NCBI GenBank assembly: GCA_035502475.1
Contig: DATJUJ010000001.1
Coordinates: forward strand, 27,907 to 91,906
Origin: Thermoplasmata archaeon
GTDB taxonomy: Archaea > Thermoplasmatota > Thermoplasmata > Lutacidiplasmatales > UBA184
Direction: 5' to 3'
Length of the DNA stretch: 64,000 nucleotides
Positions 9,343 through 58,014 of the stretch are shown piece by piece. The notes below the pieces were generated by a model that worked only from the letters and a program-made list of their open reading frames with translations, was not told the origin of the DNA and did no database searches. Position 1 is the stretch's first letter. Each line of letters opens with the position of its first letter. Position numbers and translations under genes: made by a program.

Positions 9343-10248
9343 ATGCCGCGGCCCGCGCGTCCCTCCTCGGTCCTCGGCCGACTCCTTGAGGCCGCGGGGT
9401 ACCGCCTCGACCCGCGGCCCGAGGGCGTCCTCGCGGTCCGGGCGAAGGACCGTCGGGCGGTCCTGATCGTGGCCGCCCCGCGGTCGCCCGCCGACGTGGA
9501 GGGCCTGTTCCCGACGGACGCGGTCCACCGCACGATCGTCTACGACGACGAGCCGGGGACGGTCGCGCGCGCGCTCGCCGCCGACCGCAGCATGGAGGTG
9601 CTCGAGCCGAGCACGCTCGGCGCGGCCCTCGGCGAGCTGCTCCTTCCGGCCCCGCCCGGGCCGCTCGAGTCCGTCGACGACGACTTCGCGACCGACGGGC
9701 CGGGGCTCCCGTTCCCGGTCGCTCCCGACGGGGAGCGCACGGTCCGGCCCCGCATCGATCGCGCCGAGGCCGAGGTCGTCGCGGGCATCGACGCGAGTCA
9801 GTTCACGCTCCGCTTGGTCCCCTACTTCGTGGGGGCGTACCGGGTCCGTCCTCCGTCGCCGCACGGGGAGTCCGGACCGGTCGTCCGTCGGCTGGTGGCG
9901 GTGAACGCGATCAGTCGGGGCGCCGAGATCTGGGAGGACGGCGATCGCGAGCTCGTCCGGGGCGTGGCCGACCCGCACCAGCGGCTGCCGCCCCAGCTCA
10001 CCGAGCCGCAGGCGCGCTCCGCGGCGGTCGAGGCGATCCGTCGCCACCATACCGTCCACGTCGACCACACCGAGCAGCACGGGGGCGCCCTCGTCATCGA
10101 GACCCGGCGGATCCCGCCCTCCCCCGACGACCTCCAGGTGGGGCCGCTCGTGCTGCTCTACGTTCCCCACTGGTACGCGGAGTCCGGCGACGGACGAGTC
10201 GTGGTCGACGCGGTCACCGGCCGTCGGGCGGCCCTCGCCGACCCGTGA
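9343..10248 (+). CDS. Hypothetical protein
   Basis: 301 aa, normal amino-acid composition, co-directional with the well-supported MBL gene downstream. The antisense 502-aa ORF is R/G/D-rich shadow. I recognise no family. Confidence 0.55.
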   Translation: MPRPARPSSVLGRLLEAAGYRLDPRPEGVLAVRAKDRRAVLIVAAPRSPADVEGLFPTDAVHRTIVYDDEPGTVARALAADRSMEVLEPSTLGAALGELLLPAPPGPLESVDDDFATDGPGLPFPVAPDGERTVRPRIDRAEAEVVAGIDASQFTLRLVPYFVGAYRVRPPSPHGESGPVVRRLVAVNAISRGAEIWEDGDRELVRGVADPHQRLPPQLTEPQARSAAVEAIRRHHTVHVDHTEQHGGALVIETRRIPPSPDDLQVGPLVLLYVPHWYAESGDGRVVVDAVTGRRAALADP

Positions 10249-10299
10249 GCACCGCCCCTCCCGCACAGGGTCAAATACGCCGCTCCGACTGACGCGGCC

Positions 10300-10911
10300 G
10301 TGATCCTCGACCAGTTCCGGGTCGGCCCCTACCTCAACTTCACCTACCTCGTCGTGGACGACGACGGGCACGACGCGGTCGTGATCGACCCGTCGTTCGG
10401 CATCGACCCGGTCCTCGCGGGGATCGATGCCCGCGGCGCGAAGGTCCGGTACATCCTCAACACGCACAGCCACCGCGACCACGTCGCCGGGAACCAGGAC
10501 GTCCGGGACCGCACCGGGGCGAAGGTGGTCGCCCACCGCGTCGCCCCGCTCCACCAGGACGTCTCGGTCGAGGACGGTGACGCGTTCGAGGTCGGCCACC
10601 TGCGCTTCGAGGTCGTCCACACGCCCGGGCACACGAAGGACAGCGTGCTCTACCTCTTCGAGGGGCAGGTCGCCACCGGTGACACGCTGTTCGTCGGGGA
10701 GTGCGGACGGACCGATCTCCCCGGCGGCGACCCCTCGGAGATGTACGACAGCCTGCACCAGCGGGTCCTGGCGCTCGACGACGCGCTCGTCGTGCTGCCC
10801 GGCCACGACTACGGCCCCACCCCGACCTCCACGATCGGGCGCGAGCGGCAGGAGAACTACACGCTCCAGCCCCGGACCCGGGAACAGTTCCTCCAGTTCC
10901 TGAGGGAGTGA
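10300..10911 (+). CDS. MBL-fold metallo-hydrolase (glyoxalase II-like)
   Basis: 203 aa, NTHSHRDHVAGN (HxHxDH), HTPGHT, GDTLFVGECGRTDLPGG, LPGHDY. Confidence 0.88.
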   Translation: MILDQFRVGPYLNFTYLVVDDDGHDAVVIDPSFGIDPVLAGIDARGAKVRYILNTHSHRDHVAGNQDVRDRTGAKVVAHRVAPLHQDVSVEDGDAFEVGHLRFEVVHTPGHTKDSVLYLFEGQVATGDTLFVGECGRTDLPGGDPSEMYDSLHQRVLALDDALVVLPGHDYGPTPTSTIGRERQENYTLQPRTREQFLQFLRE

Positions 10912-10915
10912 GCCG

Positions 10916-11482
10916 ATGGCCCCTCTGCCCCCGGTCGAGGAACGGGCGTTGCGCGCCGTGGGCGCCCGTCGCCCCGCGCCCGGCCGGCCCGCGACCGCGC
11001 CGCTCGTCGCGGTCCTGCGCGACCTCGCGAAGGAGTCGGAGGCGCTGGTCGGCCTGTTCGACGCGCGCGCGATCGCCGGCGAGCGCCACCTCCTCTCCGC
11101 GTGGGCGCACCTCGGGCGGGCCCGCAGCCGCGGAGAGACCCGCCTGAGGGAGCGAGGGGCCGAGTTCGCCCTGTACGTCGCCGGGGACGATCAGCTGCCG
11201 CGCGCCCTCGCCAAGGTCGGCGTCTCGGACGCGACCGAAGCGTTCGTCGTCGTCGCGGAACGCCCCCTCGACCCGGTGGACCTCGTCCCCCGGTTCGGTC
11301 TCGTGCTGGACCCGGACGCGTTCCCGCGGCCGGTCGACGAGGGCACGCTCGATCGGCTCGGGATCCCGGCCGCGGAACGCGACGCCGTCCCCCCGACGGC
11401 CTGGGAAGGGCTCGTCCTCGAGCGGGTGGCCCTCGTCGACCTCGCCGCCCCGACCGGCAAGGGGCCCGCCGCAAAGCATTAG
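10916..11482 (+). CDS. cgi121: KEOPS complex subunit Cgi121
   Basis: 188 aa. FDARAIAGERHLLSAWAHL...EFALYVAGDDQLPRALAKVGVSDATEAFVVV...LVLERVALVDL aligns by eye with archaeal Cgi121 such as MJ0187. Confidence 0.65.
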   Translation: MAPLPPVEERALRAVGARRPAPGRPATAPLVAVLRDLAKESEALVGLFDARAIAGERHLLSAWAHLGRARSRGETRLRERGAEFALYVAGDDQLPRALAKVGVSDATEAFVVVAERPLDPVDLVPRFGLVLDPDAFPRPVDEGTLDRLGIPAAERDAVPPTAWEGLVLERVALVDLAAPTGKGPAAKH

Positions 11483-11688: not shown

Positions 11689-11772
11689 GCTGAGGTAGCC
11701 TAGTCCGGTAAGGCGCCAGCCTTGAAAGCTGGTGGCGGTCACGCCGCGGGAGTTCGAATCTCCCCCTCAGCG
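11689..11772 (+). tRNA. tRNA-Ser (anticodon UGA), class II with a long variable arm
   Basis: GCTGAGG-TA-GCCT-AGTCCGGTA-AGGC-G-CCAGC-CTTGAAA-GCTGG-TGGCGGTCACGCCGC-GGGAG-TTCGAAT-CTCCC-CCTCAGC-G. All stems pair. Confidence 0.9.
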
Positions 11773-12513
11773 TCCGCCCGGCGCGCGCGCCAGGACCAAC
11801 GCCCGTCCGTGCTCGCGGCGGATCGGGGCGGCCGCGAGGGGTCGCAGGCCGGCGTCGCGGAGGAGCTCCGGCCATCGGGACCGGGGCGTGAGCCGGAGCA
11901 CCTCGGTCTCCGTCACGTGCCGCACCCCCCGGTGTTCGATCCCGATCAGGTACTCGAGATCGAGGTAGGAGAGGTCGCCCCGGCGGCGCACGACCCCGAA
12001 CCGCACGATCGCGATCTGCGCATCCCGGTAGACGTTGACGCCCACGTGGCCCCGGCGCAGCTCGTCGGGCGCGAGCCACGGTTCCACGAGGAGCAGGCCC
12101 CCCGGTCGCAGGTGCCGGGCGAACGCCCGGAGCGCCGCGCGCAGGTCGCGCTCCGTTCGGAGGTAGCCGATCGAGCTGAACAGACAGCTCACGACGTCGA
12201 ACCGGTCCCGCAGCGCGAGCCGGCGCATATCCGACCGGACGAGCCGGACGCCGGGGAGTCGGCGGCGGGCGAGTCGCAGCATCGCGGGGCTCCGGTCGAC
12301 GCCGACGACGCGGAAGTCGCGGCGGAGCTCGGCGAGGTGCCTCCCCGTGCCGCAGGCGACGTCGAGCCAGTCTCGCGCCGACCGGGGACCGAGCCGACGC
12401 ACGAGGCCGCGCAGCCGGCGGACCTCCCCGGCATAGTCCTTCGCGTCGTAGATCCGATCGTAGAGGTCAGCCCGTCGGCCGTACATCGGCGACCCGGCCT
12501 CCCGAGCGACCAT
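11767..12513 (-). CDS. Class I SAM-dependent methyltransferase
   Basis: YGRRADLYDRIYDAKDY...WLDVACGTGRHL...VVGVDRSPAML...FDVVSCLFSSIGYL. Start uncertain: ATG 12513 is chosen, ATG 12486 is equally plausible, and the track start 12771 is antisense shadow of mutS. The stop overlaps the 3' end of tRNA-Ser by 6 nt on the opposite strand. Confidence 0.82.
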   Translation of the reverse strand: MVAREAGSPMYGRRADLYDRIYDAKDYAGEVRRLRGLVRRLGPRSARDWLDVACGTGRHLAELRRDFRVVGVDRSPAMLRLARRRLPGVRLVRSDMRRLALRDRFDVVSCLFSSIGYLRTERDLRAALRAFARHLRPGGLLLVEPWLAPDELRRGHVGVNVYRDAQIAIVRFGVVRRRGDLSYLDLEYLIGIEHRGVRHVTETEVLRLTPRSRWPELLRDAGLRPLAAAPIRREHGRALVLARAPGGR

Positions 12514-12548
12514 CCCCGGCCCCGCCGTTCCGCGACCTGCGCGCCGCA

Positions 12549-12554
12549 TTATAA
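12549..12554. promoter_or_regulatory. Palindromic TATA box (TTATAA) between the divergent methyltransferase and mutS genes
   Basis: The only A/T hexamer in the spacer. Its first base lies 32 nt upstream of the mutS ATG (12581), consistent with a leaderless mutS-mutL transcript. It could also serve the minus-strand gene. Confidence 0.45.
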
Positions 12555-12580
12555 GGCGCGCCTCGCCTGCCGCTGCGGCG

Positions 12581-15211
12581 ATGTCCGACGCGACGCCGAG
12601 CACCCCGCTGCTCGAGCAGTACGAAGGGGTGAAGGCCCGGTACCCGGGGCACCTCGTGCTCTTCCGGGTGGGCGACTTCTTCGAGACGTTCGGCGACGAT
12701 GCGCGCCTCCTCTCGAAGGAGCTCGACGTCGTGCTCACGGCGCGCGCCCCGGACGCCCGCGGGGATCGCACGCCGATGGCCGGGGTCCCGCACCATGCGG
12801 TCGAGACGTACCTCGCCCGCCTCGTCCGGAAGGGCTACAAGGTCGCCCTGTGCGACCAGGTGGAGGACGCCCGGTTCGCGAAGGGGCTCGTCCGACGCGA
12901 GGTGACCCGGGTCGTCACCCCCGGCACGGTGGTCGAGGATGGGATCCTGGGCGGCCCCGACCACAACTTCCTCGCCTGCGTGGTCGGGCGGGGCGAGGGC
13001 CCGGGGGCGTTCGCGGCCGTCGACATCACGACGGGCGAGTGGTTCCACGGTCTCGCGGACGGCGCCGGGCCGGACGGGCTCCTCGGCGCGCTCGCGCCGT
13101 TCCGTCCCCGCGAGGTGCTCTGGGAGGAGGCCGCGGGGCCGTCGGAGGACGCGCTCCTCTCCGCCCTCCGGCGGGAGCTGCCCGGGGCCCGGGTCGAGCA
13201 CGCGCCCGCCCCCCTGACGGCGGCCGACTGGCCGGTCTCGCTCGAGCTCCCCCTCGACACGCCCGAGGTCGTGGCCGAGGCGGACCACCGGCTCGGGGCC
13301 TTCCTGCGCGCGACGCAGCCCCGGATCCTCCCGTTCCTCACGGTCGTGACGCGGGGTCGTGGCGACCGGCGGCTCGTCCTCGACGCGAAGACCCTCCGGC
13401 ACCTCGAGATCCTGCGCCCGATGAACCCGGACGATCCGAAGGGCCCGACCTTGTTGGACGCCGTCGACGAGACCCGGACGGCTCCCGGGCGTCGCACGCT
13501 CGCCTTCTGGCTCGCGAACCCGCTCGCGGACCTCGACGGGATCGTCGAGCGCCAGGAGGCGGTGGACGCGCTCGCGGCGCGGGGGGCCGCGCTCGAGCCG
13601 GTGCGCGACGCCCTGCGGCCGATCGCCGACCTCGCGCGCATCGCTTCCCGGATCGTCGGCCGGCGCACCCGACCCCCCGAGCTGGGGGCGGCCCGCGCCT
13701 CGTTGCGCGCGGTCGCCCGGGTCCGGCAGCTCCTCGGGGACGGGGCGCGCCCCGGCCGTCTCGCGACCGTGGAGCGCGACCTCGAGGCGCCGGAGGCGCT
13801 CGTCGCCCTCCTCGAGCGGGCCGTGCCGGAGACGCCCCCCGCCTCGCTGGACGGCGGGGAGCTGTTCCGTCCGGGGTTCGTCCCCGTCGTCGACGCGGCC
13901 CGGGACCGGGAACGCACGGCCGTCGCCGCGCTCACCGAGCTCGAGCGCACGGAGCAGGAACGCACCGGGATCCGCACGCTGAAGATCGGCTACAACCAGG
14001 TGTTCGGCTACTACCTCGAGATCACGCGCCCCCACCTCGCGCGGGTCCCTCCGGAGTACCGCCGCCGCCAGACGGTCGCGCAGGCCGAGCGGTTCGGCTC
14101 GGACCGCCTCGAGGCGCTCGAACGGGAGGTCCTCGGGGCGCGCGAGGAGGCCCGCGCCGCGGAGCTCGAGGCGTGGGAGCGGTTCCTGGTCGAGGTCGAC
14201 GGCCACGTGCCGGCGATGCACCGGATCGCCCGCGCGGTCGGCGAGCTCGACGTGCTCGCGACCTTCGCGCACCTGGCCCAGAGCCGCGGGTTCGTCCGTC
14301 CGACGGTCGATGGGTCGACGGCGCTCGTGATCCGGGACGGCCGCCACCCCGTGCTGGCTCCTTCGCTCGGAGCGCGGTTCGTGCCGAACGACACCGAGCT
14401 CGACGGCGACGCGCTCCGCCTGCTCGTGCTCACCGGCCCCAACATGTCCGGGAAGTCGACGTACATGCGCCAGATCGGGCTCCTCGTCGTACTCGCCCAG
14501 GTCGGCTGCGGCGTGCCGGCGAAGTTCGCCCGGATCGGCCTCGTGACCCAGCTGTTCACGCGCATGGGCTTCACGGACGAGATCGGCCGCGGCAAGTCGA
14601 GCTTCATGGTCGAGATGACCGAGGTCGCGGAGATCCTCCGCGCGGCCGACGCGCGCTCGCTCGTGCTGCTCGACGAGGTCGGGCGCGGCACGAGCACGTT
14701 CGACGGGCTGGCGATCGCCTGGGCGACGCTCCGGCACCTGCACGACACGACCCGGGCCCGGTGCGTGCTCGCGACGCATTACCACCAGCTCACGGAGCTG
14801 GTCGGGGGCCTCCCCGCCGCGCAGAACGCCCATCTCGCGGTCCGGGAAGGGCCGGACGGGATCGTCTTCCTGCACCGGCTGGTGCCCGGGAGCACCGACC
14901 GCAGCTACGGCATCCACGTCGCTCGCCTCGCCGGCCTCCCCGAGGACGTGCTCGCCGAGGCCGATCGGCTCCTGCGGCGGTTGGAAGCGGACGGCGTCGC
15001 GTTGCCCGGGGCGGGCCGGGCGGCGGCGCGCCGCGCCCGCTACACCCAGGCCGTGCTGGTCACGGGTCTCCCGGAAGCGGACGATCCCCTTCGGCGCGCC
15101 CTGGATGCGATCGACCTCGACCGGCTCACCCCGGAGGAGGCGCTCGCGATCCTGAAGGGCCTCGCTCACCGCCCGGGGGTCCCGAAGGCCGGAGACGGAG
15201 CGGCCCGGTGA
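12581..15211 (+). CDS. mutS: DNA mismatch repair protein MutS (MutS1, bacterial type, full length)
   Basis: 876 aa. N-terminal mismatch domain TPLLEQYEGVKARYPGHLVLFRVGDFFETFGDDA, Walker A GPNMSGKSTYMRQ, LLDEVGRGTSTFDG, ATHYHQL. Confidence 0.95.
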   Translation: MSDATPSTPLLEQYEGVKARYPGHLVLFRVGDFFETFGDDARLLSKELDVVLTARAPDARGDRTPMAGVPHHAVETYLARLVRKGYKVALCDQVEDARFAKGLVRREVTRVVTPGTVVEDGILGGPDHNFLACVVGRGEGPGAFAAVDITTGEWFHGLADGAGPDGLLGALAPFRPREVLWEEAAGPSEDALLSALRRELPGARVEHAPAPLTAADWPVSLELPLDTPEVVAEADHRLGAFLRATQPRILPFLTVVTRGRGDRRLVLDAKTLRHLEILRPMNPDDPKGPTLLDAVDETRTAPGRRTLAFWLANPLADLDGIVERQEAVDALAARGAALEPVRDALRPIADLARIASRIVGRRTRPPELGAARASLRAVARVRQLLGDGARPGRLATVERDLEAPEALVALLERAVPETPPASLDGGELFRPGFVPVVDAARDRERTAVAALTELERTEQERTGIRTLKIGYNQVFGYYLEITRPHLARVPPEYRRRQTVAQAERFGSDRLEALEREVLGAREEARAAELEAWERFLVEVDGHVPAMHRIARAVGELDVLATFAHLAQSRGFVRPTVDGSTALVIRDGRHPVLAPSLGARFVPNDTELDGDALRLLVLTGPNMSGKSTYMRQIGLLVVLAQVGCGVPAKFARIGLVTQLFTRMGFTDEIGRGKSSFMVEMTEVAEILRAADARSLVLLDEVGRGTSTFDGLAIAWATLRHLHDTTRARCVLATHYHQLTELVGGLPAAQNAHLAVREGPDGIVFLHRLVPGSTDRSYGIHVARLAGLPEDVLAEADRLLRRLEADGVALPGAGRAAARRARYTQAVLVTGLPEADDPLRRALDAIDLDRLTPEEALAILKGLAHRPGVPKAGDGAAR

Positions 15212-16992
15212 CCGGCGGACCGGACCCCCCGGTGGCCCGCCGGCCGATCCGGCGGCTCGACCCGTCGGTCATCGAGCGGATCGCGGCAGGCGAGGTCGTG
15301 GAGCGTCCGGCCTCGGTCGTGAAGGAGCTCGTCGAGAACGCGCTCGACGCCGGGGCGCGGGAGGTCGAGGTCCGGCTCGACGGGGGCGGTCTCACCCGTC
15401 TCGAGGTGAGCGACGACGGCTTCGGCATCCCTTCCGACGAGCTCGCGCTCGCCTTCGAGCGTCACGCGACCAGCAAGCTGGACCCCTTGGGACCGATCGA
15501 CCGCATCGGTTCGCTCGGCTTCCGCGGCGAGGCGCTCGCGGCGATCGCGACCGTCGCCCGGGTGCGCCTCCTCTCCCGGCCCCCCGGCCAGCCGCACGCG
15601 ACCGGCCGGGAGGCAGCGAACGGCGTCCTCGGCCCGTCGTTCGATGGCGGGCGGGCACCGGGCACCACGGTCGAGGTCTCGGAGCTGTTCGACCGCACCC
15701 CCGCGCGGCGGAAGTTCCTCAAGAGCCCCGCCGCGGAACAGGTCGAGGCGCTGCGCACGGTCGAACGGCTCTATCTCGCGCGGCCCTCGGTCGGGGTGCG
15801 GGTCCTGGTTGAAGGGCGCGAGCTCGCCCGGTACCCGACTTCCCCGGGCCTGCGCGACGCCGCGGCCCGCGTGCTCGGGACGGAGATCCTCTCCGCTTCA
15901 TTCGCGGTCGATGCGCCCGTCCCCGGCGGTCGGCTGGCGGGGGTCCTTGGCCGCCCCAGCGTCAGCGCGGCCTCGTCCACCCGGCTCTTCGTCGCGGTCA
16001 ACGGTCGCGCGATCGACGCCCGCCCGATCGCCCAAGCGGTCCGGCTGGCCTTCGGGGAGTTCCTGCCCCGGACGCGCTACCCGATCGGCGTGCTGCACCT
16101 CACGATCGACCCGGAGCGGCTCGACGTGAACGTCCACCCCACGAAGCGGTCGATCCGCTTCGTCCAGGAGCGGGAGCTGGCGGACGCCGTCCGCCACCGG
16201 GTCCGGGAGGCCCTGCTCGACGTCCCCCAGGTCGCCGACCGGGGCGAGCGCCCGCTCCCGACGCGGCCGGCCGCCGGGCCCGAGCCGACCGGCCTTTCCG
16301 TACGGCTGGGGTCGGGCGCGTCCGGAGCCCGCGGAGGGGTCGCGAGCCAGCGCACGCTCGAGGAGGGGACCGGCCCGCGGACTCAAACCCCGAGCGTGCC
16401 CGCGGTCGGGCCCCATCCGGCGCTGCGTCTCTTGGGTTGCCTCGACGCGATCTACTGGGTTGCCGAGGCGGACGACGGGCTCCTGCTCATCGACCAGCAC
16501 GCCGCGAGCGAGCGGGTCGTCTTCGAGCGCCTGCGTCGGCGCGCCCCGGTGCGGCGCCAGGCGCTGGTCCTGCCGGTGGCCGTGCGCCTGAGCGGGGCCC
16601 AACGCTCGGCGCTCGCCGCGCACGGCGAGCTCGTGCGCTCCGCCGGCTTCGAGGTCGAGCCGTTCGGCCCCGAGGCGGTGCGCGTGGTGGCGATGCCGGC
16701 GTTCCGCGGCCGGTCGGCGGGAGCCGCCGCGCTCTCGGCCCTGCTCGACGAGCTCGCCGACGGCGGCCGCCCCACGGTGCCCGACGGGCTGATCGAGCGG
16801 ACCTGCGCGACGCTCGCCTGCCACGCCGCGATCCGCGCCGGCGACCGGGTCCCCGCCGAGGAGTTCGCGCGGGTGCTCGACGCGCTGTACGCGCTCCCCG
16901 AGGCCGCGTACGCCTGCCCGCACGGCCGTCCGATCGTCGTGCGGATCCCCCGCGGCCGGCTCGATCGGTGGTTCCTCCGGAGCGGCGTGTGA
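15208..16992 (+). CDS. mutL: DNA mismatch repair endonuclease MutL
   Basis: Real part of the 1756-aa track ORF. GTG at 15208 overlaps the mutS stop (GTGA). GHKL ATPase IAAGEVVERPASVVKELVENALDAG, endonuclease motif DQHAASERVVFE, and CPHGRP near the C-terminus. Confidence 0.93.
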   Translation: MTGGPDPPVARRPIRRLDPSVIERIAAGEVVERPASVVKELVENALDAGAREVEVRLDGGGLTRLEVSDDGFGIPSDELALAFERHATSKLDPLGPIDRIGSLGFRGEALAAIATVARVRLLSRPPGQPHATGREAANGVLGPSFDGGRAPGTTVEVSELFDRTPARRKFLKSPAAEQVEALRTVERLYLARPSVGVRVLVEGRELARYPTSPGLRDAAARVLGTEILSASFAVDAPVPGGRLAGVLGRPSVSAASSTRLFVAVNGRAIDARPIAQAVRLAFGEFLPRTRYPIGVLHLTIDPERLDVNVHPTKRSIRFVQERELADAVRHRVREALLDVPQVADRGERPLPTRPAAGPEPTGLSVRLGSGASGARGGVASQRTLEEGTGPRTQTPSVPAVGPHPALRLLGCLDAIYWVAEADDGLLLIDQHAASERVVFERLRRRAPVRRQALVLPVAVRLSGAQRSALAAHGELVRSAGFEVEPFGPEAVRVVAMPAFRGRSAGAAALSALLDELADGGRPTVPDGLIERTCATLACHAAIRAGDRVPAEEFARVLDALYALPEAAYACPHGRPIVVRIPRGRLDRWFLRSGV

Positions 16993-17546
16993 CGCCCGCG
17001 ACCGGCCCGGACCCGCGTCGCTCGGAGCGGGAGCTGGTCGCGGTCGTCGCCGCCCACTGCGCGGCGCAGGGCTACCGGACCTACATCGACCCGGACGGGT
17101 CGGACTACTTCGACCTGGTCGTCCGCCGGGGCGACGAGGTCGGCCTCGTCGAGGCGAAGCGCTCGAACGCCCGGGCGGTCCTCCAGCAGGCGCTGCGGCG
17201 TCGCGTCTGGGGCGACTGGACCGCGGTCGCGCTCCCGGGGGCCCGGGCCGCGCGCCGGCTCGCGGACCGCACCCGCGGCTCGCGCGCGGCGCCGGTCGGC
17301 GTCTGGCTCGTCCGAGGGACCGCGGTCAAGGAGCTCCGGGCCGCGGTCCCGTGGGCCGTGCCGGGCACCCCCGACCCGTACGCCCCGCTCCGCGATCGGT
17401 TCCGGGCCGTGCTCACGAGCCTCGACCGGGGGGAGCTTCCCGCCTCGGTCGCGTGGGACGCGGTGCCCTCCGCGGTCCGTCGGGCGTCCCGGGGCCGGGG
17501 CTTCGCCGAGTGGCGCCTCGACGAGCCCGGCCCCGGCGGCCCCTAG
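16989..17546 (+). CDS. Hjc-like PD-(D/E)xK nuclease (Holliday junction resolvase-like) with a C-terminal extension of about 75 aa
   Basis: GTG at 16989 overlaps the mutL stop. SERELVAVVAAHCAAQGYRTY...DYFDLVVRRGDEVGLVEAKRSN matches the Hjc pattern E-R-E-L...G...(V/F)DLV...(I/V)E(V/A)K by eye. The upstream part of track ORF 16437.. is shadow. Confidence 0.6.
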   Translation: MTPATGPDPRRSERELVAVVAAHCAAQGYRTYIDPDGSDYFDLVVRRGDEVGLVEAKRSNARAVLQQALRRRVWGDWTAVALPGARAARRLADRTRGSRAAPVGVWLVRGTAVKELRAAVPWAVPGTPDPYAPLRDRFRAVLTSLDRGELPASVAWDAVPSAVRRASRGRGFAEWRLDEPGPGGP

Positions 17547-18688
17547 GCGGCGACCGGCTGGACGGCCGCCGCGACGGCCTCGGCGACGCGCTCGGGCCGG
17601 AACCGGTCCGCGTACGCGAGCGCCGGCTCGGCGATCGACCGGCGGAGCGCGGGATCGGCGAGGAGCTCCGCGAGCACCGACGCGGTCTCGCCGGCGTCGT
17701 CCGATCCGACCCGCCGGATCGCGCCGCCCGGGTCGAGCGGCAGCGCCGTCGCGGGGCCCGCGACGGCGACGCAGCCCGCACGCAGGGCGAGGATGACCCC
17801 GGGGTCGAATCCCACCGGCCGGCGAAGGAACAGCGCCACGTCGGAGGCGGCGAGCACTCCGGCGATCGAGGTCCGGTCCCGGGCCGGCACCCGGACGACG
17901 CCGGGGTCGGTCGGGGCGGGGCCGCCGACGATCACGAGACGGGCCCCGGGAAAGAACGGCCGGACGCGCCGGAACGTCTCCGCCGCCCGGTCGAGGCCCG
18001 CGACCGCGGGGTCCTCCGCCGACGCGACGGCCGCGACGACCGGGACGTCGAGCGGCAGCTGGAGCAGGGCGCGGGCCGCGGGACGGCCCGGCACGTCGCC
18101 CGGCGAAAGGACCGGCGGGACCGCCGGCACGAGCCGGCGCTCGGGGACGTCGTACTCGCGCGCGAGCACCGCGGGCAGCGCGGGGTCGTCGAAGAAGAGG
18201 CGGTCCGCCTCCTCGAGCGCCGCGCGCTCGAGCCGGCGCACGGCCCGGCGATCGCGCCAGGTGTCGAGTCGCCCCGCGAGGCCCGCGGCGGGCACGCCCC
18301 CGCGCTCGCGGTCGAACCCCACCAGCTCGACGGAGCGCGCGAACCCGGCGACCCGCGGGCCGCCGCGTCCGCGCGCGACGCCCGTCCGCCCCAGCCCGAG
18401 CGGGTCCCGGACGACGAGCTCCACGTCGGAGCGCAGCCGGCGGCCCGCGGCCGCGGCGTACTCGGCCGGCTCGGCCGCCGCGCCGGGGTGGCGGAGCGGC
18501 AGCGGCACGGGGACCGACGCGATCCCGGGGGGGCCGGCGCCGTCCGCGTCGGTCGCCGGGTGCAGGACGCGCACGTCGGCGCCGAGCGTCGCGAACCCGG
18601 CGGCGAGCGCCCAGGCGGTCGCCCGCGGGTCGTAGGGGTCGGCGCTCGGCGAGCCGGCGGCGATGACGTCGACCCGTCGGAGGGTCAT
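17543..18688 (-). CDS. Glycosyltransferase, GT-B fold (family 1/4-like)
   Basis: 381 aa. Its organisation is typical of GT4 enzymes (N-terminal acceptor domain, C-terminal LVIVGG...). The stop shares a CTAG tetranucleotide with the convergent upstream gene. Confidence 0.65.
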   Translation of the reverse strand: MTLRRVDVIAAGSPSADPYDPRATAWALAAGFATLGADVRVLHPATDADGAGPPGIASVPVPLPLRHPGAAAEPAEYAAAAGRRLRSDVELVVRDPLGLGRTGVARGRGGPRVAGFARSVELVGFDRERGGVPAAGLAGRLDTWRDRRAVRRLERAALEEADRLFFDDPALPAVLAREYDVPERRLVPAVPPVLSPGDVPGRPAARALLQLPLDVPVVAAVASAEDPAVAGLDRAAETFRRVRPFFPGARLVIVGGPAPTDPGVVRVPARDRTSIAGVLAASDVALFLRRPVGFDPGVILALRAGCVAVAGPATALPLDPGGAIRRVGSDDAGETASVLAELLADPALRRSIAEPALAYADRFRPERVAEAVAAAVQPVAA

Positions 18689-30182: not shown

Positions 30183-31727
30183 CTAGACGACGGGCGTCAG
30201 GACGGCGTGGGGCGCGCCCTTCTCGGGGTCCGGGCTGATCGCGTAGATCGTCGTGCGCGGCCGGATCCCGTAGATGCACGGGGCGTTGTCGATGTTGATG
30301 ATGCGGAAGTACGTGTCCATCATGTTGAGGATCTCGCTCGAGACCAGCAGCCCGGGTTTGAGGAGCCCGATGCCCAGGTTCCCGACGTGCTTCGTCCGGG
30401 CGACGCCCTGGAAGTACATCCGGATCGCGATCTGGTCGCCCATCAGGCTCTCGAACGTGTCGAACGCGGTGTACTCGATGAACGGCTTGCGGTCGGGGCC
30501 CGCGACCGCCTTCTCGGCGGTCACCATCGCGCGCGTCGCCTCGTCGCGGCCGTAGCGCGCCATCGGCAGGATGTACGGATCCTCCGTCTCGTTCGCGGTG
30601 TAGTCGGGGATCCGGACGCGCGTGTCGAACTGGTTCGGCGGGATGTGCCGCACCAGCGTGTCGCGCAGCTTCTCCGGGGATTCGCCGCCCGCGAGCACCG
30701 CGATGATGCCGCGGCCCTGGCTCAGGAAGTTGAGGAACGTCGGCGTGAACAGCATGTAGTAGTCGTCGATCCCCACGTTGACGTCGACCTCGAACGCGTT
30801 GAAGCTGCCGCGGCGCAGCCCGCCGCCCAGGAGGGTGTCGAAGTCGGGGATCCCCGTCGAGTAGTGCCGCTCGGGATCCGGGTACGGCTTCCAGGCCCCC
30901 GAGCCCGCCGGCGCGTTGCCGGCCCGCTCGGACCCGAGCGCCTCGAAGCGGCCGCCGTTCAAGGTCACGGCGTACCGGGCGCGCCCGATGTTCGTGGCCC
31001 GCAGCTTCTCGAGCCGCAGGTGCCGCACGCGGCGCTCGTCGAGCTCCTCGCGCTGGATCGAGATGAGGCCGTCGACGAGGTACTCGATGCCGCCGGCCTC
31101 GGGTTTCTCGAGGATCATGACGACGTCCGAGCTCGACCCCTCGACGAGGTCCTTCTGGAGCGCCATCACGAACTCTTCCATCTCGAGACCGTACTTGTGG
31201 GTCACCCCCTCGAGCGAGTCGATGACGAGCAGCGACTTCTCGGGGAGGTTGCGCTCGATGCGGTTGTAGACGTTCTCGACCTCGGGCATCGGGCTCCGCT
31301 TGAGGAGCGCCTGGAGGTGCGAGCGGTCGACCCGCGTCGGCGGCCCCCGTTCCTGGCCGAAGCTCCCGAGCACCTCGCGGCCGGCCCGGATCTTCTTCTG
31401 CTCCGACTCCGGGAGCTCGGGCTCGCGGCTCTTGCCGCCGGCGCTGATGGCGTCGAGGAACAGCTTCGCGGAGTCGAGGACCCGCGAGCGCATCTCGGTC
31501 GTGCGCAGCCACGGGAACTGGCGGTACAATGCCTCATCGCCGACCCGCGTCGAAAGATAGTACGAGCGGTTCGGCTGACCGACGCGCTCGAGCAGCTCCA
31601 GTCCGAACGTCGTCTTTCCCGTACCGGCCCCGCCCTTGATGATCAGCGAGCGCCCGCCCTTGCCGCTCAGGAACGCGACGACCTCCGGGGGAACGCCCCC
31701 TACGGTGCTTCCGTCACTCGCAGTCAT
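30183..31727 (-). CDS. RecA-superfamily (KaiC/GvpD-like) two-domain ATPase
   Basis: About 514 aa. PPEVVAFLSGKGGRSLIIKGGAGTGKTTFGLELLERV is the Walker A, VIDSLEG is Walker B-like, and the second domain lacks an obvious P-loop. GTG at 31745 is an alternative start. Confidence 0.65.
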   Translation of the reverse strand: MTASDGSTVGGVPPEVVAFLSGKGGRSLIIKGGAGTGKTTFGLELLERVGQPNRSYYLSTRVGDEALYRQFPWLRTTEMRSRVLDSAKLFLDAISAGGKSREPELPESEQKKIRAGREVLGSFGQERGPPTRVDRSHLQALLKRSPMPEVENVYNRIERNLPEKSLLVIDSLEGVTHKYGLEMEEFVMALQKDLVEGSSSDVVMILEKPEAGGIEYLVDGLISIQREELDERRVRHLRLEKLRATNIGRARYAVTLNGGRFEALGSERAGNAPAGSGAWKPYPDPERHYSTGIPDFDTLLGGGLRRGSFNAFEVDVNVGIDDYYMLFTPTFLNFLSQGRGIIAVLAGGESPEKLRDTLVRHIPPNQFDTRVRIPDYTANETEDPYILPMARYGRDEATRAMVTAEKAVAGPDRKPFIEYTAFDTFESLMGDQIAIRMYFQGVARTKHVGNLGIGLLKPGLLVSSEILNMMDTYFRIINIDNAPCIYGIRPRTTIYAISPDPEKGAPHAVLTPVV

Positions 31728-31851
31728 GGGATCCTCGGACCGCACGGACGGCCCGGGCTCCGAAGGCCCTGAGCCCCATCCTGAGGTCCGGGCCCTTCAT
31801 GGGCACGTTCGGAACGTAAAGGTTTCGCACCCCAAGACACGCGGGCCCCGG

Positions 31852-34445: not shown

Positions 34446-35753
34446 TTGGCGAATCCCCGCGGGGCCCGCCGCCCGGCCGGCCGCGGTCGGGCGGATGAGG
34501 CGGTCGGAGCGGTGGCGACGGGGAACGGGGCAAGCGGGCTCGACCGGTCCGCGGTGCTGCGGGCGACGATCGTCCTGATCGCCCTGCGGGTCGCCTACGC
34601 GTACAACTGGTTCGACGTCGGCCCGGCGCTGCTGCCCATCGGCGCCGCCTTCTCGGTGGGCCCGGCGGAGTTCGGCCTCCTCACGGCCGCGTTCCTCGTC
34701 GGGGCGGGCCTGCTCCAGGTACCGGCCGGGTTCCTCGCGCGGCGCTTCGGACCCCGCAGCGTCTCCCTCTGGGGGGCGGGGCTCCTCGCGGTCGGCGGCA
34801 TCGCGAGCGGCCTCGCCCCGTCGTTCCCCACCCTGCTCGCGTTCCGTCTCGCCGCCGGGTTCGGGGCCGCGCTGTTCTTCTCTCCGGCGATCGGCCTCGT
34901 CGCGAGCCTCTACCCGCCCGGGCACCGGGGGCTCCCCGTCGGCACCTTCAGCTCCGCGTTCAGCCTCGGCTCGGCGCTGGGCGTGTTCGTGACCGCCCTC
35001 CTGATCCCACCGCTCGGGTGGCGCAACTCGCTCGTGCTCGGCGGGGCCCTGCTCGGCGTCCTCACGGTAATCGCCGTGTTCGCGATCCCGCGCGGCGCGG
35101 GCGCCCGCCCGGTCGCCCGACCCTCGGGCGGGCTCCCGGCCGCGCTGCGGTACCGGGGGGTCTGGGCGGTCGGGTTCGCGTTCATCGGACTCGAGGGCGC
35201 CTCCTTCGCGACGGGCCAGTTCATCGTGCCGTGGGGCCAGGTCGTGCACGGCTGGTCGCTCGCGCTCGCGGGCGCGGTCGGGACCGCCTTCGTGCTCCCG
35301 AGCCTGTTCGGCGGCCCGGTCGGCGGACCGATCGCGGAACGGTTCCGGAACCACCGGACCCAGTTCCTGGTCGCCACCGTCCTCGGCGCGGTCCTCCTGG
35401 CCCTGCTGCCGTTCGTCGGGCTCGTCGAGATCGTGGCGATCGGCGTCGTCTTCTCGTTCGGCTACGGGTTCGTCTACGCCGTGATGTACGTGCTCCCCCA
35501 CTTCTGGCGGTCGGTGCCGAGCGCGGAGATCCCGCTCGCGATCGGGCTGTTCAACTCGATCCAGCTCGCCGGCGGCGCGCTGGTGCTGTTCCTGTTCGGC
35601 TGGATCGTCGCGGCGACGTCGTACTCCGTCGGCTGGGAGGTGATCGCGGGGGTGACCGCCGCGACGCTCGCCGCCCTGGTCTCGCTGCCCGCGACCGTGC
35701 GCGCGGCCGCGGCGGCCGGTCCTCCGCTCGCGGGGGGTCCCGGCCCGCCCTGA
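34446..35753 (+). CDS. MFS transporter
   Basis: About 12 hydrophobic helices and an MFS loop motif, GFLARRFGPR. The start is uncertain; downstream in-frame GTGs are possible. Confidence 0.8.
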   Translation: MANPRGARRPAGRGRADEAVGAVATGNGASGLDRSAVLRATIVLIALRVAYAYNWFDVGPALLPIGAAFSVGPAEFGLLTAAFLVGAGLLQVPAGFLARRFGPRSVSLWGAGLLAVGGIASGLAPSFPTLLAFRLAAGFGAALFFSPAIGLVASLYPPGHRGLPVGTFSSAFSLGSALGVFVTALLIPPLGWRNSLVLGGALLGVLTVIAVFAIPRGAGARPVARPSGGLPAALRYRGVWAVGFAFIGLEGASFATGQFIVPWGQVVHGWSLALAGAVGTAFVLPSLFGGPVGGPIAERFRNHRTQFLVATVLGAVLLALLPFVGLVEIVAIGVVFSFGYGFVYAVMYVLPHFWRSVPSAEIPLAIGLFNSIQLAGGALVLFLFGWIVAATSYSVGWEVIAGVTAATLAALVSLPATVRAAAAAGPPLAGGPGPP

Positions 35754-36408
35754 GCGCCCGCCCCGTGGCGCAGAGGTCGGCGATCGGGCACTCGGGGCAG
35801 CGCGGCCGCCGGGGCCGGCACAGGTTCTGCCCGTGCTGGACGAGCAGCGGGTTGAGGGGGATCCAGTAGGCGCGCGGCACCACGCGCGCGAGCGCCCGCT
35901 CCGTCGCTTCGGGCGTCCGCGTGCGGACGACGCCGAGGCGGTTCGCGATCCGGTGCACGTGGGTGTCGACCGGGATCGCCGGGATCCCGTACCCGAACAC
36001 GAGCACGCAGTTCGCCGTCTTCGGGCCGACGTGCGGCAGGCTCACGAGCGACTCAAAGTCCCGGGGGACCTCGCCGCCGAACCGGTCGAGGAGCGCCTGG
36101 GCGCACGCCCGCACGCCCCGGGCCTTCATGCGGTAGAACCCGGTCGCCCGGATGAGCGGCTCGATCGCCTCGGCCCGGGCCCCCGCGAGCGCGCGGGCAT
36201 CCGGGTACCGCGCGAACAGGCGGGCGCTCGCGACGTCGGTGTTCGCGTCCCGGGTCCGCTGGGAGAGGATCGTGCCGACCAGGACCTGGAACGGGTCTTC
36301 CGCGTGGTCCCGGAGGTACGGGGTCCGCCAGTCGCCGGTCCGATAGAGGGCCGACAGGCGGTCGAGGACCGTCTCCCACGGGAACGGTACCGGCGCGGCC
36401 CGCCTCAC
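35551..36408 (-). CDS. nth: Endonuclease III (Nth) with a 72-aa Arg/Ser/Pro-rich C-terminal tail
   Basis: GTG 36408 overlaps the folC stop. LVGTILSQRTRD, HhH LPHVGPKTANCVL, VDTHVHRI, and Fe-S motif CRPRRPRCPECPIADLC. The first in-frame stop comes only at 35551, so the tail is antisense to the MFS 3' end. Confidence 0.85.
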   Translation of the reverse strand: MRRAAPVPFPWETVLDRLSALYRTGDWRTPYLRDHAEDPFQVLVGTILSQRTRDANTDVASARLFARYPDARALAGARAEAIEPLIRATGFYRMKARGVRACAQALLDRFGGEVPRDFESLVSLPHVGPKTANCVLVFGYGIPAIPVDTHVHRIANRLGVVRTRTPEATERALARVVPRAYWIPLNPLLVQHGQNLCRPRRPRCPECPIADLCATGRALRAGRDPPRAEDRPPRPRARSRAARPGRRASRRSPPRSPPSRRSTTSPRRSSRTGTAPARRRRAGSS

Positions 36409-37832
36409 GACTGCCGTCCTCCGACGGCCGGGACCGACTCCGTGCCGGGGTCCGAGAGGTCCGGCTCGTCCGGCGCCGCCCCCTCCCGTCGCACGAGCTC
36501 GCCGATGAGGTAGTCGCTGCCGACGACGAGCGTGAACCCGTCCGGCCCGGTCGCCGCCCGGGCCACGCGCACGCCTTGCTCCACGTCCGGCGCGAGGACG
36601 ATCCGGGGGAACCGGCCGACCCCGGCGACCCGAAGCTCCGCGGGCGGCACGGCGCGCTCCGAGCGCACGGGAACGACGACGAGGGTCCGGGCGAGCGGCG
36701 CGAGCGCGTCCAGGATCCGCTCGACGTCCTTGCCCCGCAGCACGCCGAAGACGATCGCGCACTCGGACGGGTCCGCGAGCGGCGCGATCTCCGCGAGGCT
36801 CTGCGCGACCGCGCGGGCGCTCTCGGGGGTGTGCGCGACGTCGTAGTAGAGCTCCGGCCGCCGGGCGACGCGCTCGAGGCGGCCCCGCCAGCGGACGTCG
36901 GCGAGACCCGCGCGCACCCGGTCGGGATCGATCGAGCGCCCCGTCGCGGCGGCGAAGCGGACCGCCGCGCCGATCGCGAGCGCGGCGTTCCCCGGCTGGA
37001 ACCGCCCGAGCAGCGGCAGGCGGACCGCGTCGAACGTCGCGCCCGGGACGCGCACCCGGAACGTCTGGCCCTCCGCGTCGAGGCGCCGCTCGTCGACCCG
37101 GACCTCCGTCCCGAGGCGCCAGAGCGGGACGCCGAGGCGGCCGGCTTCGGCCTCGACCGTGGCGAGGGCGTCCGGGGGAAGCTCGCCGACGACCCCGGTC
37201 ATGCCGGGGTGGAAGATGCCGGACTTCTCGCGGGCGATCGCGGAGCGGGTCGACCCCAGGAGCTCCGTGTGCTCGAGCTCGATCGTCGTCACGACGCCGA
37301 CGCGCGCATCGAGCACGTTCGTCGAGTCGAGCCGCCCGCCCATGCCGACCTCCACGACCGCCGCGTCGACCCGGCGTCGCGCGAACCAGTCGAGGGCGAT
37401 CGCGGTCGTGACCTCGAAGAACGTCGGCGCGTGGTCGATCGTGCCGGTCGCCTCCAGCCGTTGGGCCGCCGCGTCGACCCGCTCGACCCCCGCGACGACC
37501 TCGCGGGCCCCGATCGACCGGCCATCGATCTGGATCCGCTCGCGGTAGCTCGCTAGGTGCGGGGAGGTGAACCGGCCCGTCCGCAGCCCGTGGGCGCTCA
37601 GGATCGCGGCGGTCATCGCCGCGACGGACCCCTTGCCCTTGCTGCCCGTGATGTGGACGGCGGGGTAGGTGCGCTCCGGATGCCCGAGGGCCTCGAGGAG
37701 CCCCCGAATTCGTTCGAGCCCCGGACGCAGGCCGAAGCGACGGCGGCGGTAGAGGCCGTTGAGCGCGGCCCGGTAGCGGTCCCGCCCACCAGGCACCGGG
37801 CGGCCGTCGGCCTCGGGGATTCGGTCGGTCAC
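36405..37832 (-). CDS. folC: Folylpolyglutamate synthase/dihydrofolate synthase (Mur ligase family)
   Basis: 475 aa with HITGSKGKGSV (P-loop). The overall layout is FolC-like. Confidence 0.85.
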   Translation of the reverse strand: MTDRIPEADGRPVPGGRDRYRAALNGLYRRRRFGLRPGLERIRGLLEALGHPERTYPAVHITGSKGKGSVAAMTAAILSAHGLRTGRFTSPHLASYRERIQIDGRSIGAREVVAGVERVDAAAQRLEATGTIDHAPTFFEVTTAIALDWFARRRVDAAVVEVGMGGRLDSTNVLDARVGVVTTIELEHTELLGSTRSAIAREKSGIFHPGMTGVVGELPPDALATVEAEAGRLGVPLWRLGTEVRVDERRLDAEGQTFRVRVPGATFDAVRLPLLGRFQPGNAALAIGAAVRFAAATGRSIDPDRVRAGLADVRWRGRLERVARRPELYYDVAHTPESARAVAQSLAEIAPLADPSECAIVFGVLRGKDVERILDALAPLARTLVVVPVRSERAVPPAELRVAGVGRFPRIVLAPDVEQGVRVARAATGPDGFTLVVGSDYLIGELVRREGAAPDEPDLSDPGTESVPAVGGRQS

Positions 37833-52274: not shown

Positions 52275-52409
52275 CGGCCCGAGGGCGGTCGGGTGTGCGG
52301 GGTTCCGCGCGCCAGCAAACACTATCTATCCTCGCGCGAGACCGGAGGACGGCGATGGGGCTCGCCATAACCGCCGCTCCGCGGATGATGGCCCCTACAG
52401 CGGGTCCCC

Positions 52410-54197: not shown

Positions 54198-54353
54198 ATC
54201 GTCCCGGGCGGCGCCCCCCGTCGGAGAACCGTTCCTCGGTCGACGGGCGAGGTCCGCCGCTCCCGCGCCGGCCCGCTCCGCCCGGGCCGCTGGCCGCCCT
54301 CAACCCGCCGGGCCCCCGGGCGGGAGCGGGCGACGCGCCGACCCCACCCCGGG

Positions 54354-57520: not shown

Positions 57521-58014
57521 TCCCGGACCGACCGCCCCGGCGGAGCGGCGCCCGCGGACGACGGTCCGTCGATCGCGCGGACGAGTACATGCGGATCGTG
57601 GTCTCGGTCGCCGTGCTGGAGCGGGGCCGGGTCCTCGTGATGCGGGAGGAGGACGAGCCCCACACCGGGGCCTGGGTGCTGCCGCAAGGGTACCCCCACC
57701 CCGGGGAGACGCTCGTGGCCGCCGCGAGCCGCGAGGTGATGGAGGAGCTCGGACTCGACGTCGCGGTCCAGGGGCTCGTCGGAGTCTACGACGCGTTCGA
57801 GCGGAACGCGGGAGGACCGGCGGTGCATTGGGTCACGGTCTGCTACTGGGCCCGTCTCCTGCGCGACCTTCCGCCGCGGGCGAGTCCGGAGGCGATCGAC
57901 TTCGCGTGGGTCGAGCCGTCCGCGCTAGCGACCTCCGCCATGCCGCAGCTTCGGGACCGGGCGGAGGACCTCGTCCGGCTCCTCACGTCCCGTCGGCGCG
58001 AGGCGAGATCGTAG
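57517..58014 (+). CDS. Nudix hydrolase
   Basis: ATGA overlap with the upstream stop. Complete Nudix box GYPHPGETLVAAASREVMEELGL (G-x5-E-x7-REUxEExGU). Confidence 0.85.
   Translation: MIPDRPPRRSGARGRRSVDRADEYMRIVVSVAVLERGRVLVMREEDEPHTGAWVLPQGYPHPGETLVAAASREVMEELGLDVAVQGLVGVYDAFERNAGGPAVHWVTVCYWARLLRDLPPRASPEAIDFAWVEPSALATSAMPQLRDRAEDLVRLLTSRRREARS

Follow-up and report, generated by a model that had tools for sequence, protein, structure and literature searches.

MutL of Escherichia coli activates MutH and Vsr, two nucleases with PD-(D/E)xK-type folds, and in eukaryotes a short peptide motif mediates the binding of EXO1 to MLH1. In MutH systems, MutL itself is without the endonuclease motif. 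How bacterial-type MutS-MutL pairs work after their transfer to archaea is poorly understood; to our knowledge archaea have neither the beta-clamp nor MutH, and they may lack the usual bacterial excision enzymes. NucS/EndoMS, which acts in a mismatch pathway, combines an N-terminal DNA-binding domain with a C-terminal PD-(D/E)xK nuclease domain, binds its partner (the sliding clamp) with a C-terminal peptide and, according to PMC8228993, occurs typically where MutSL is absent. Caulobacter requires MmcB, another PD-(D/E)xK endonuclease and one implicated in crosslink tolerance, to withstand mitomycin C and cisplatin (PMC9578287). For the order Lutacidiplasmatales (TMEG), which was defined using, among others, the AcS and SubAcS metagenome-assembled genomes (MAGs), a GC content of ~69% has been reported and mutLS is listed as an order trait, with no third gene mentioned beside it (PMC9287336). 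Here we describe such a third gene, in a stretch of 64,000 nucleotides (nt) from a Thermoplasmata archaeon of this order (assembly GCA_035502475.1, contig DATJUJ010000001.1, positions 27,907 to 91,906; hereafter the window). This open reading frame (ORF), here called ORF3, directly follows mutS and mutL and encodes a nuclease-like protein of 185 amino acids (aa). Our literature search yielded no paper that ties a nuclease or a third gene to archaeal mutSL; while the mutS-mutL operon was already known for the Lutacidiplasmatales, its coupled nuclease gene thus appears to be undescribed.

The mutS-mutL-ORF3 operon

The first-pass annotation, which was based on the DNA letters and their translations, had claimed that this archaeon has a mutS-mutL pair of bacterial type, with an endonuclease-proficient MutL, chained to ORF3 by two GTGA overlaps; both overlaps and the MutL motifs are indeed read directly in the sequence (Table 1). 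The mutS product has domains I-V of bacterial-type MutS1, with MutS_II matching weakly among the Pfam domains, and it surpasses the cut-offs of the NCBIfam hidden Markov models (HMMs), including the equivalog level (NF003810, 827.8 bits with a cut-off of 480; TIGR01070, 791.2 bits with a cut-off of 641.7). MutL scores 448 bits with TIGR00585 (cut-off 180) and matches HATPase_c_3, DNA_mis_repair and MutL_C in Pfam as well as the N- and C-terminal domains of MutL in the PDB. Its translation also holds LIDQHAASERVVFERL, ACHAAIR (an ACR-type motif) and YACPHGRPIVV. Almost every related locus retains the motif DQHA(x)2E(x)4[E/D], and CPHGRP is present in 85 out of 86. With the GHKL ATPase, MutL_C and all of these motifs in place, MutL is of the nicking, MutH-independent endonuclease type, and since its endonuclease motifs are conserved across the clade, ORF3 would add an activity rather than substitute for the nuclease of MutL. 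In one long-read MAG (CAVSTD010000008.1, 3618-8004; our loci L001/L010), a gene call of 1252 aa combines the MutS domains with the MutL ATPase domain and is followed by a MutL_C fragment of 198 aa, which reflects either an assembly indel or a genuine fusion and split of mutS-mutL.

The operon region has a GC content of 72-78% and nearly every frame is open; an open frame by itself therefore says little. The GC periodicity of the third codon position, however, singles out exactly the frames of mutS, mutL and ORF3, including ORF3 at 17100-17490. Together with the 277 conserved homologues recovered by protein search, this rules out that ORF3, whose translation includes SERELVAVVAAHCAAQGY...FDLVVRRGDEVGLVEAKRS, is an open frame that arose by chance from the high GC content of the genome. 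A start at 16989 is supported by the length of the homologues (183-190 aa), by the kept NTGA junction and by the position of an invariant glutamate, E13, which lies 12 codons downstream with no in-frame ATG, GTG or TTG in between. Downstream, a convergent glycosyltransferase-like gene overlaps the end of ORF3 tail-to-tail by 4 nt (17543-17546), which leaves no space for a terminator, and the unit therefore comprises three genes. To judge from its position only, the TATA-like box upstream of mutS is the probable promoter of a leaderless mutS-mutL-ORF3 transcript.

The best 120 of the 277 homologues are 59-68% identical to ORF3 and nearly all are 180-195 aa long. Those that carry a name all derive from "Thermoplasmata archaeon" MAGs, and the MAGs concerned, several AcS and SubAcS MAGs among them, are of high GC, come from soil and peat and belong to the Lutacidiplasmatales/TMEG. 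When each GTDB species was scanned through a single genome, ORF3 was detected in 110 species genomes, all of them soil or peat Thermoplasmata. Only 24 clusters at E<1e-30 emerged when 1.84 billion cluster representatives were searched exhaustively with a profile; the full-length family is therefore narrow. Distances between ORF3 sequences follow those of the neighbouring genes (r 0.87-0.92), at a rate of 0.51 as compared to 0.49 for MutL, which points to vertical inheritance. ORF3 is a real gene under purifying selection. The window that carries it also encodes aCPSF1, a proteasome subunit, ribosomal proteins L13 and L18e, and a fragment of RNA polymerase B.

In all 86 fetched loci (80 GTDB species plus metagenome contigs), to which the window proteins were compared by tblastn, mutL lies directly upstream of ORF3. 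The same arrangement is found on the short contigs of the two most divergent placed full-length members (P0141 and P0144), where ORF3 overlaps by 4 nt a gene for a MutL C-terminus that is 48-57% identical to that of the window. The adjacency thus recurs in 88 out of 88 loci examined, and among these no family member was found apart from mutL. At protein identities of 46-68%, an ATGA, GTGA or TTGA overlap is kept in 82 of the 85 junctions; the other three comprise one TGATG, one start lying 4 nt downstream and one probable frameshift. Gene calls of relatives show the same 4-nt overlap between mutS and mutL. Furthermore, the three-gene block is intact where the downstream glycosyltransferase and phosphodiesterase genes are absent (L075-77, L084), where the downstream genes are rearranged or inverted (L079, L081) or split by insertions (L009, L058), and both with and without a methyltransferase gene upstream of mutS. 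This pattern suggests that ORF3 is translated by coupling to the stop codon of mutL, and such coupling is part of the explanation preferred below. On the points at which the first-pass annotation was most exposed, a PD-(D/E)xK fold is predicted for ORF3 (see below), its adjacency to mutL is not unique to this genome and its start does not lie far downstream.

Fold and relatives of ORF3

AlphaFold2 models were obtained for the full protein with 42 homologues (predicted local distance difference test, pLDDT, 81; predicted template modelling score, pTM, 0.77) and for residues 1-128 (pLDDT 87.6, pTM 0.81). The predicted core consists of a helix (13-26), three strands (30-33, 43-47 and 50-56), a helix (61-70), a strand (77-82), a helix (85-94) and a hairpin (104-117), in which E13 stands at the start of helix 1, D42 in strand 2 and E55-x-K57 in strand 3. 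These four residues are invariant in all 77 unique sequences extracted from the loci and also in a broad alignment that includes distant relatives; in total, E13, D36, D42, E55, K57, Q67, A68, R71, R72, W74, W77, G104 and R117 of the core are conserved in at least 75 of the 77. Judged by the model, the core fold and the placement of D and (D/E)xK are those of the PD-(D/E)xK superfamily. Foldseek searches of the PDB with the ORF3 models gave no match at E<=1e-3, and the matches listed are nearly all PD-(D/E)xK nucleases: YaeQ (E 8e-3), Pfu Hjc (1GEF; E 9e-3, TM-score 0.43/0.46, root-mean-square deviation (rmsd) 3.4 A over 80 columns), the Hjc structure 2WCW (TM 0.42/0.44), Afu, Sso and St Hjc, the PaqCI nuclease domain (TM 0.63 on the query), BsaWI, Bax1 and Can2. 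Several PD-(D/E)xK families, such as that of YaeQ, which is among the top fold matches, are without a proven nuclease role, and ORF3 might by the same token be a non-catalytic DNA-binding or regulatory protein with a nuclease-like fold. An invariant tetrad, retained even in distant relatives, is however the pattern expected of an active enzyme, and we regard a non-catalytic ORF3 as highly improbable. That it is a catalytically competent, metal-dependent PD-(D/E)xK DNA endonuclease is part of the explanation that we prefer, and as such we give it an even chance.

The N-terminal region of ORF3 had initially been read by eye as following the pattern of the archaeal Holliday-junction resolvase Hjc (PF01870; 1GEF, 2WCW, 1HH1) or, more generally, of PD-(D/E)xK nucleases. 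The latter part of this reading is borne out by the predicted fold and by the tetrad, which has nearly the spacing found in Hjc (E13-D42-E55-K57 in ORF3, E9-D33-E46-K48 in Pfu Hjc) with the same assignment to helix 1, strand 2 and strand 3; membership of the Hjc family is not. In Pfam and NCBIfam scans listed to E<=1, with the Pfam gathering and NCBIfam cut-offs as family thresholds, the window protein did not match PF01870, and the five of 42 ORF3 relatives that did so remained below the cut-off (best E 0.0047). The matches of the window protein to other named families are likewise weak, with AHJR-like as the best in Pfam (E 0.24), a YraN-type model as the best in NCBIfam (E 0.023, sub-threshold) and the viral family phrog_12193 at E 0.026. 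Over the 42 relatives, further sub-threshold Pfam matches were to AHJR-like (10 relatives), Mrr_cat and PDDEXK_5, and a broader ORF3 alignment adds weak matches to MmcB-like, PDDEXK_9 and UPF0102. The MmcB-like family PF06319 was matched weakly by three of the 44 sequences in that alignment (best E 0.016), none of which reached its threshold. The commonest sub-threshold Pfam match, VpsR (PF20161; 11 of 42 relatives, best E 0.018), was given no weight. No match to MutH, Vsr or NucS occurred among the Pfam and NCBIfam hits at E<=1, and none to the PADLOC defence models at E<=0.01. The family thus falls outside the curated domain libraries.

Could ORF3 nevertheless be the Holliday-junction resolvase of this lineage, an analogue of or replacement for Hjc that was placed behind mutL for co-regulation or for MutSL-guided control of recombination rather than for mismatch excision? 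Pfu Hjc is the best named PDB sequence match of the broad profile (E 0.0023; followed by the UPF0102 protein 3FOV, E 0.0027, and by the MmcB-like 3DNX and Sso Hjc, both E 0.021), the majority of the top 25 matches of the core domain in the Foldseek search of the PDB are Hjc chains, and JGI labels two family members 'Holliday junction resolvase'. When the broad alignment was compared by hhalign with 44 Hjc sequences, E, D and ExK were aligned (probability 63%, E 7e-5, 55 columns); the narrow ORF3 alignment alone gave a probability of 5-15%. The likeness is, however, confined to the first ~55-80 residues, with TM-scores of 0.41-0.46 over ~80 residues. The Hjc-invariant residues outside the tetrad (G5, R25, S29 and F68, Pfu numbering) have no counterpart in the ORF3 alignments, DPDGxDYFD occupies the site of the S-rich loop of Hjc, and the QALxRRxWGDW helix of ORF3 is without an Hjc equivalent. 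Moreover, Hjc is a stand-alone protein of 120-145 aa, whereas ORF3, with its 185 aa, has extra helices and a conserved tail and is limited to one archaeal order, where it always follows mutL. Its likeness to Hjc is therefore real at the level of active-site layout, without making it a member of that family.

A canonical hjc gene was looked for in several ways. None is present among the scanned genes of the 64-kb window. A profile of four Hjc sequences and a GC-shifted consensus probe each retrieved, among the matches listed, only Hjc of Archaeoglobi, Thermococci, Sulfolobales and Methanobacteria, and a narrower Hjc alignment retrieved 80 metagenome loci that all have a GC content of <=51%, none being from the ~70% GC lineage; neither outcome is evidence of absence, and the same applies to the lack of an Hjc entry in the supplements of PMC9287336. 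Although this failure to retrieve one from the lineage would suit a replacement, Hjc is described in PMC6555300 as conserved throughout Archaea, and on that statement a separate hjc would be expected elsewhere in the genome. Since the nearest relatives of ORF3, moreover, appear to be viral or MmcB-like, the proposal that the organism's own Hjc was recruited into the operon is improbable as a statement on orthology, and we consider a resolvase role as such unlikely.

These nearest relatives came to light in a Foldseek search of predicted viral structures (BFVD), which gave eight matches at E<=1e-3 (E 2.7e-7 to 6.7e-4, TM up to 0.67) and whose top matches are again nearly all PD-(D/E)xK nucleases. 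Their alignments span 150-197 columns and so include the C-terminal helices of ORF3. They include a marine phage Gp1.5 (E 2.7e-7), an Ackermannviridae protein (E 3.9e-7), three proteins named "MmcB-like DNA repair protein" (for that of Dickeya phage JA13, E 2.9e-5, TM 0.67, rmsd 4.1 A over 155 columns) and a protein of an uncultured archaeal virus. In the broad alignment, 25 of the 44 sequences match the viral family phrog_12193, of unknown function (best E 4.3e-30), individual clade members reaching E 3.7e-6 to 0.0093. Both outgroup relatives that were examined, P0154 (246 aa; L089, 4464-5204) and P0152 (291 aa; L091, 509-1384), are each surrounded by a series of small unannotated ORFs on the same strand, with a ParB_N-N6_N4 methyltransferase gene in one of the two series, and these contigs look like viruses or integrated elements; P0154 as a query found nothing in IMG/VR. 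Therefore, the closest relatives of ORF3 would be viral or MmcB-like (PF06319, 3DNX; phrog_12193), the best structural matches found, rather than Hjc. This suggests a viral or mobile-element source for the domain, and the most economical history would be the capture of a virus-type nuclease downstream of mutL in an ancestor of the Lutacidiplasmatales (TMEG).

Such an origin raises the question whether ORF3 is simply a domesticated or hitch-hiking viral or mobile nuclease, e.g., a former homing endonuclease or a defence-type or crosslink-repair enzyme, that makes use of the mutL transcript and acts independently of MutS and MutL. Besides the viral and MmcB-like relatives, the absence of a specific signal of co-evolution with MutL (see below) would fit. 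However, presence across ~110 species genomes with apparently vertical inheritance is unlike the sporadic occurrence of selfish elements, the junction with mutL has been kept almost throughout, purifying selection on the active site is strong and PADLOC gave no match. We therefore regard independent action as quite unlikely.

The C-terminal ~75 aa had been taken to be free of motifs in the first-pass annotation, which does not hold. Two helices are predicted there, with L142 and W156 conserved, the latter also in the distant viral-type relatives. They are followed by a tail of the family form GRGFxEWRLDE, in which G169, R170, F172, E174, W175, R176, D178 and E179 vary little or not at all (G169, R170, E174 and E179 in at least 75 of the 77 sequences), while the more divergent clade members end in [WFY]RL[DE][ED]. 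Residues 120-185 have no sequence match in the PDB and none in Pfam, the viral relatives have neither the WRLDE tail nor the linkage to mutL, and the model shows the final ~15 residues as disordered (pLDDT <50). Docking peptides are usually recognised as short conserved motifs within disordered tails, and GRGFxEWRLDE is thus a candidate for a peptide that binds a partner. It does not fit the canonical PCNA-box consensus.

A possible role beside MutL

The fold and invariant tetrad of ORF3, its strict linkage and coupling to mutL, and the endonuclease motifs that MutL itself retains are best explained, in our opinion, by ORF3 being a dedicated accessory nuclease, a client of MutL that is probably of viral origin and is co-translated with it. 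The first-pass annotation had offered this as its alternative to a recruited Hjc, and it is the better fit of the two; we put the likelihood of its being correct at about one half. The ancestor of the Lutacidiplasmatales (TMEG) would already have had ORF3 as a fixed third cistron behind mutS and mutL. Once MutS and MutL have marked a mismatch-containing duplex or heteroduplex, MutL, which still has a nicking site of its own, would bring in or activate ORF3, perhaps via the disordered tail. A second cut, by ORF3, might follow in the course of strand removal or in the rejection of mismatched recombination intermediates, with a branched or flap intermediate as its most plausible substrate. Such a substrate seems likelier than a sequence-specific nick because the core is Hjc-like and MmcB-like. 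The contact of ORF3 with MutL, its substrate and the step of the pathway are all inferred.

The mechanism is proposed by analogy with MutH and Vsr, which are likewise PD-(D/E)xK-type nucleases that work with MutL. The differences are considerable, as MutL here keeps DQHA(x)2E(x)4E and CPHGRP, no GATC or methylation logic is evident, and ORF3 has no sequence match to MutH or Vsr. From NucS, to which the PD-(D/E)xK domain and the prospect of a C-terminal partner-binding peptide liken it, ORF3 differs in domain arrangement and in the lack of an HMM match.

Several points weigh against a dedicated role. The evidence for a functional tie of ORF3 to MutL is all gene context, strong as that is, and membership of an operon is no proof of a shared pathway. 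The surrounding synteny is strong within the one order, and much of the adjacency of mutL and ORF3 could therefore be inherited rather than independently maintained. A mirror-tree comparison gave a partial r of 0.37 for ORF3 and MutL, 0.36 for the control pair MutL and glycosyltransferase, and 0.69 for MutS and MutL, i.e., no signal of specific co-evolution. The window protein itself matches named families weakly, as mentioned above. Finally, MutL already has a nuclease, so that the need for a second is not obvious.

If the accessory role is real, ORF3 would be the third PD-(D/E)xK-type nuclease to serve MutL after MutH and Vsr, in this case beside a MutL that retains its own nuclease. A three-part machine for the surveillance of mismatches and heteroduplex, in which a virus-derived nuclease docks on MutL of the MutS-MutL pair through the WRLDE tail, goes a step further and is put forward here as a tentative and rather doubtful extension. 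In such a machine, ORF3 would take a step that is done by unrelated enzymes in bacteria (for instance excision-flap cleavage, second-strand incision or the cutting of mismatched recombination intermediates); it would constitute a new obligate partner of MutL and show how a bacterial repair module was adapted to the archaeal replisome. In any case, the coupled, order-wide gene is a concrete and testable candidate for a missing component of MutS-MutL, and with ORF3 comes a newly defined protein family that links repair genes of cells with a viral family whose function is unknown.

Coordinates and neighbouring genes

Table 1. Features of the operon and other genes of the window (positions in the window).
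Feature	Position	Strand	Basis or remark
mutS, bacterial-type MutS1, 876 aa	12581..15211	+	Pfam MutS_I/III/IV/V and NCBIfam matches
mutL, endonuclease-type MutL, 594 aa	15208..16992	+	TIGR00585, Pfam and PDB matches
ORF3, MutL-coupled PD-(D/E)xK nuclease-like protein, 185 aa, no curated family	16989..17546	+	Homologues, periodicity, AlphaFold2, linkage
TATA-like box ATTATAAG	12549..12556	+	~25 nt upstream of mutS ATG; role from position only
GTGA overlap mutS/mutL	15208..15211	+	GTG start 15208-15210 over TGA stop 15209-15211
MutL endonuclease motif DQHAASERVVFE, residues 429-440	16492..16527	+	Read in translation
MutL metal-site motif CPHGRP, residues 570-575	16915..16932	+	Read in translation
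GGAG, 7 nt upstream of ORF3 start	16979-16982	+	Read in sequence
GTGA overlap mutL/ORF3	16989..16992	+	GTG start 16989-16991 over TGA stop 16990-16992
ORF3 nuclease core, residues 13-117	17025..17339	+	Helix-3 strands-helix-strand-helix-2 strands; pLDDT >90 over most
ORF3 catalytic candidates E13, D42, E55, K57	17025-17027, 17112-17114, 17151-17153, 17157-17159	+	Invariance
ORF3 C-terminal helical region, helices 132-147 and 158-166; conserved L142, W156	17382..17486	+	AlphaFold2, conservation
ORF3 disordered tail motif GRGFAEWRLDE, residues 169-179	17493..17525	+	Conservation; pLDDT <50
Unknown gene (upstream trio)	9343-10248	+	No Pfam or PADLOC match
MBL-fold hydrolase (upstream trio)	10300-10911	+	
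Unknown gene (upstream trio)	10916-11482	+	No Pfam or PADLOC match
SAM-dependent methyltransferase	11767-12540	-	
Glycosyltransferase-like gene	17543-18688	-	
GvpD/KaiC-like P-loop ATPase	30186-31796	-	
Endonuclease III-type HhH-GPD glycosylase	35554-36570	-	
Dynamin-family GTPase	52389-54194	+	Dynamin_N 1.4e-21; weak PADLOC LeoA/LeoBC matches
MutS-domain-V-only protein, first	54198-55901	+	E ~1e-16
MutS-domain-V-only protein, second	55889-57517	+	E ~1e-16; weak PADLOC mad8 match

Upstream of the operon, a tightly spaced same-strand trio of genes (9343-11482), of which the middle one encodes the hydrolase, is syntenic with mutS-mutL-ORF3 in most relatives. The S-adenosylmethionine (SAM)-dependent methyltransferase gene, which stands between this trio and mutS and is divergent from the latter, occurs in a subset of the related genomes only (e.g., L011, L014, L016 and L028) and is absent in most, and it is therefore regarded as an indel adjoining the operon. 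Further downstream in the window, the dynamin-family GTPase gene, the two tandem genes for proteins with only MutS domain V and a subsequent NUDIX hydrolase gene make up a second MutS-related module (52389-58011, + strand), separate from mutS1. The glycosylase and the P-loop ATPase are encoded between the operon and this module.

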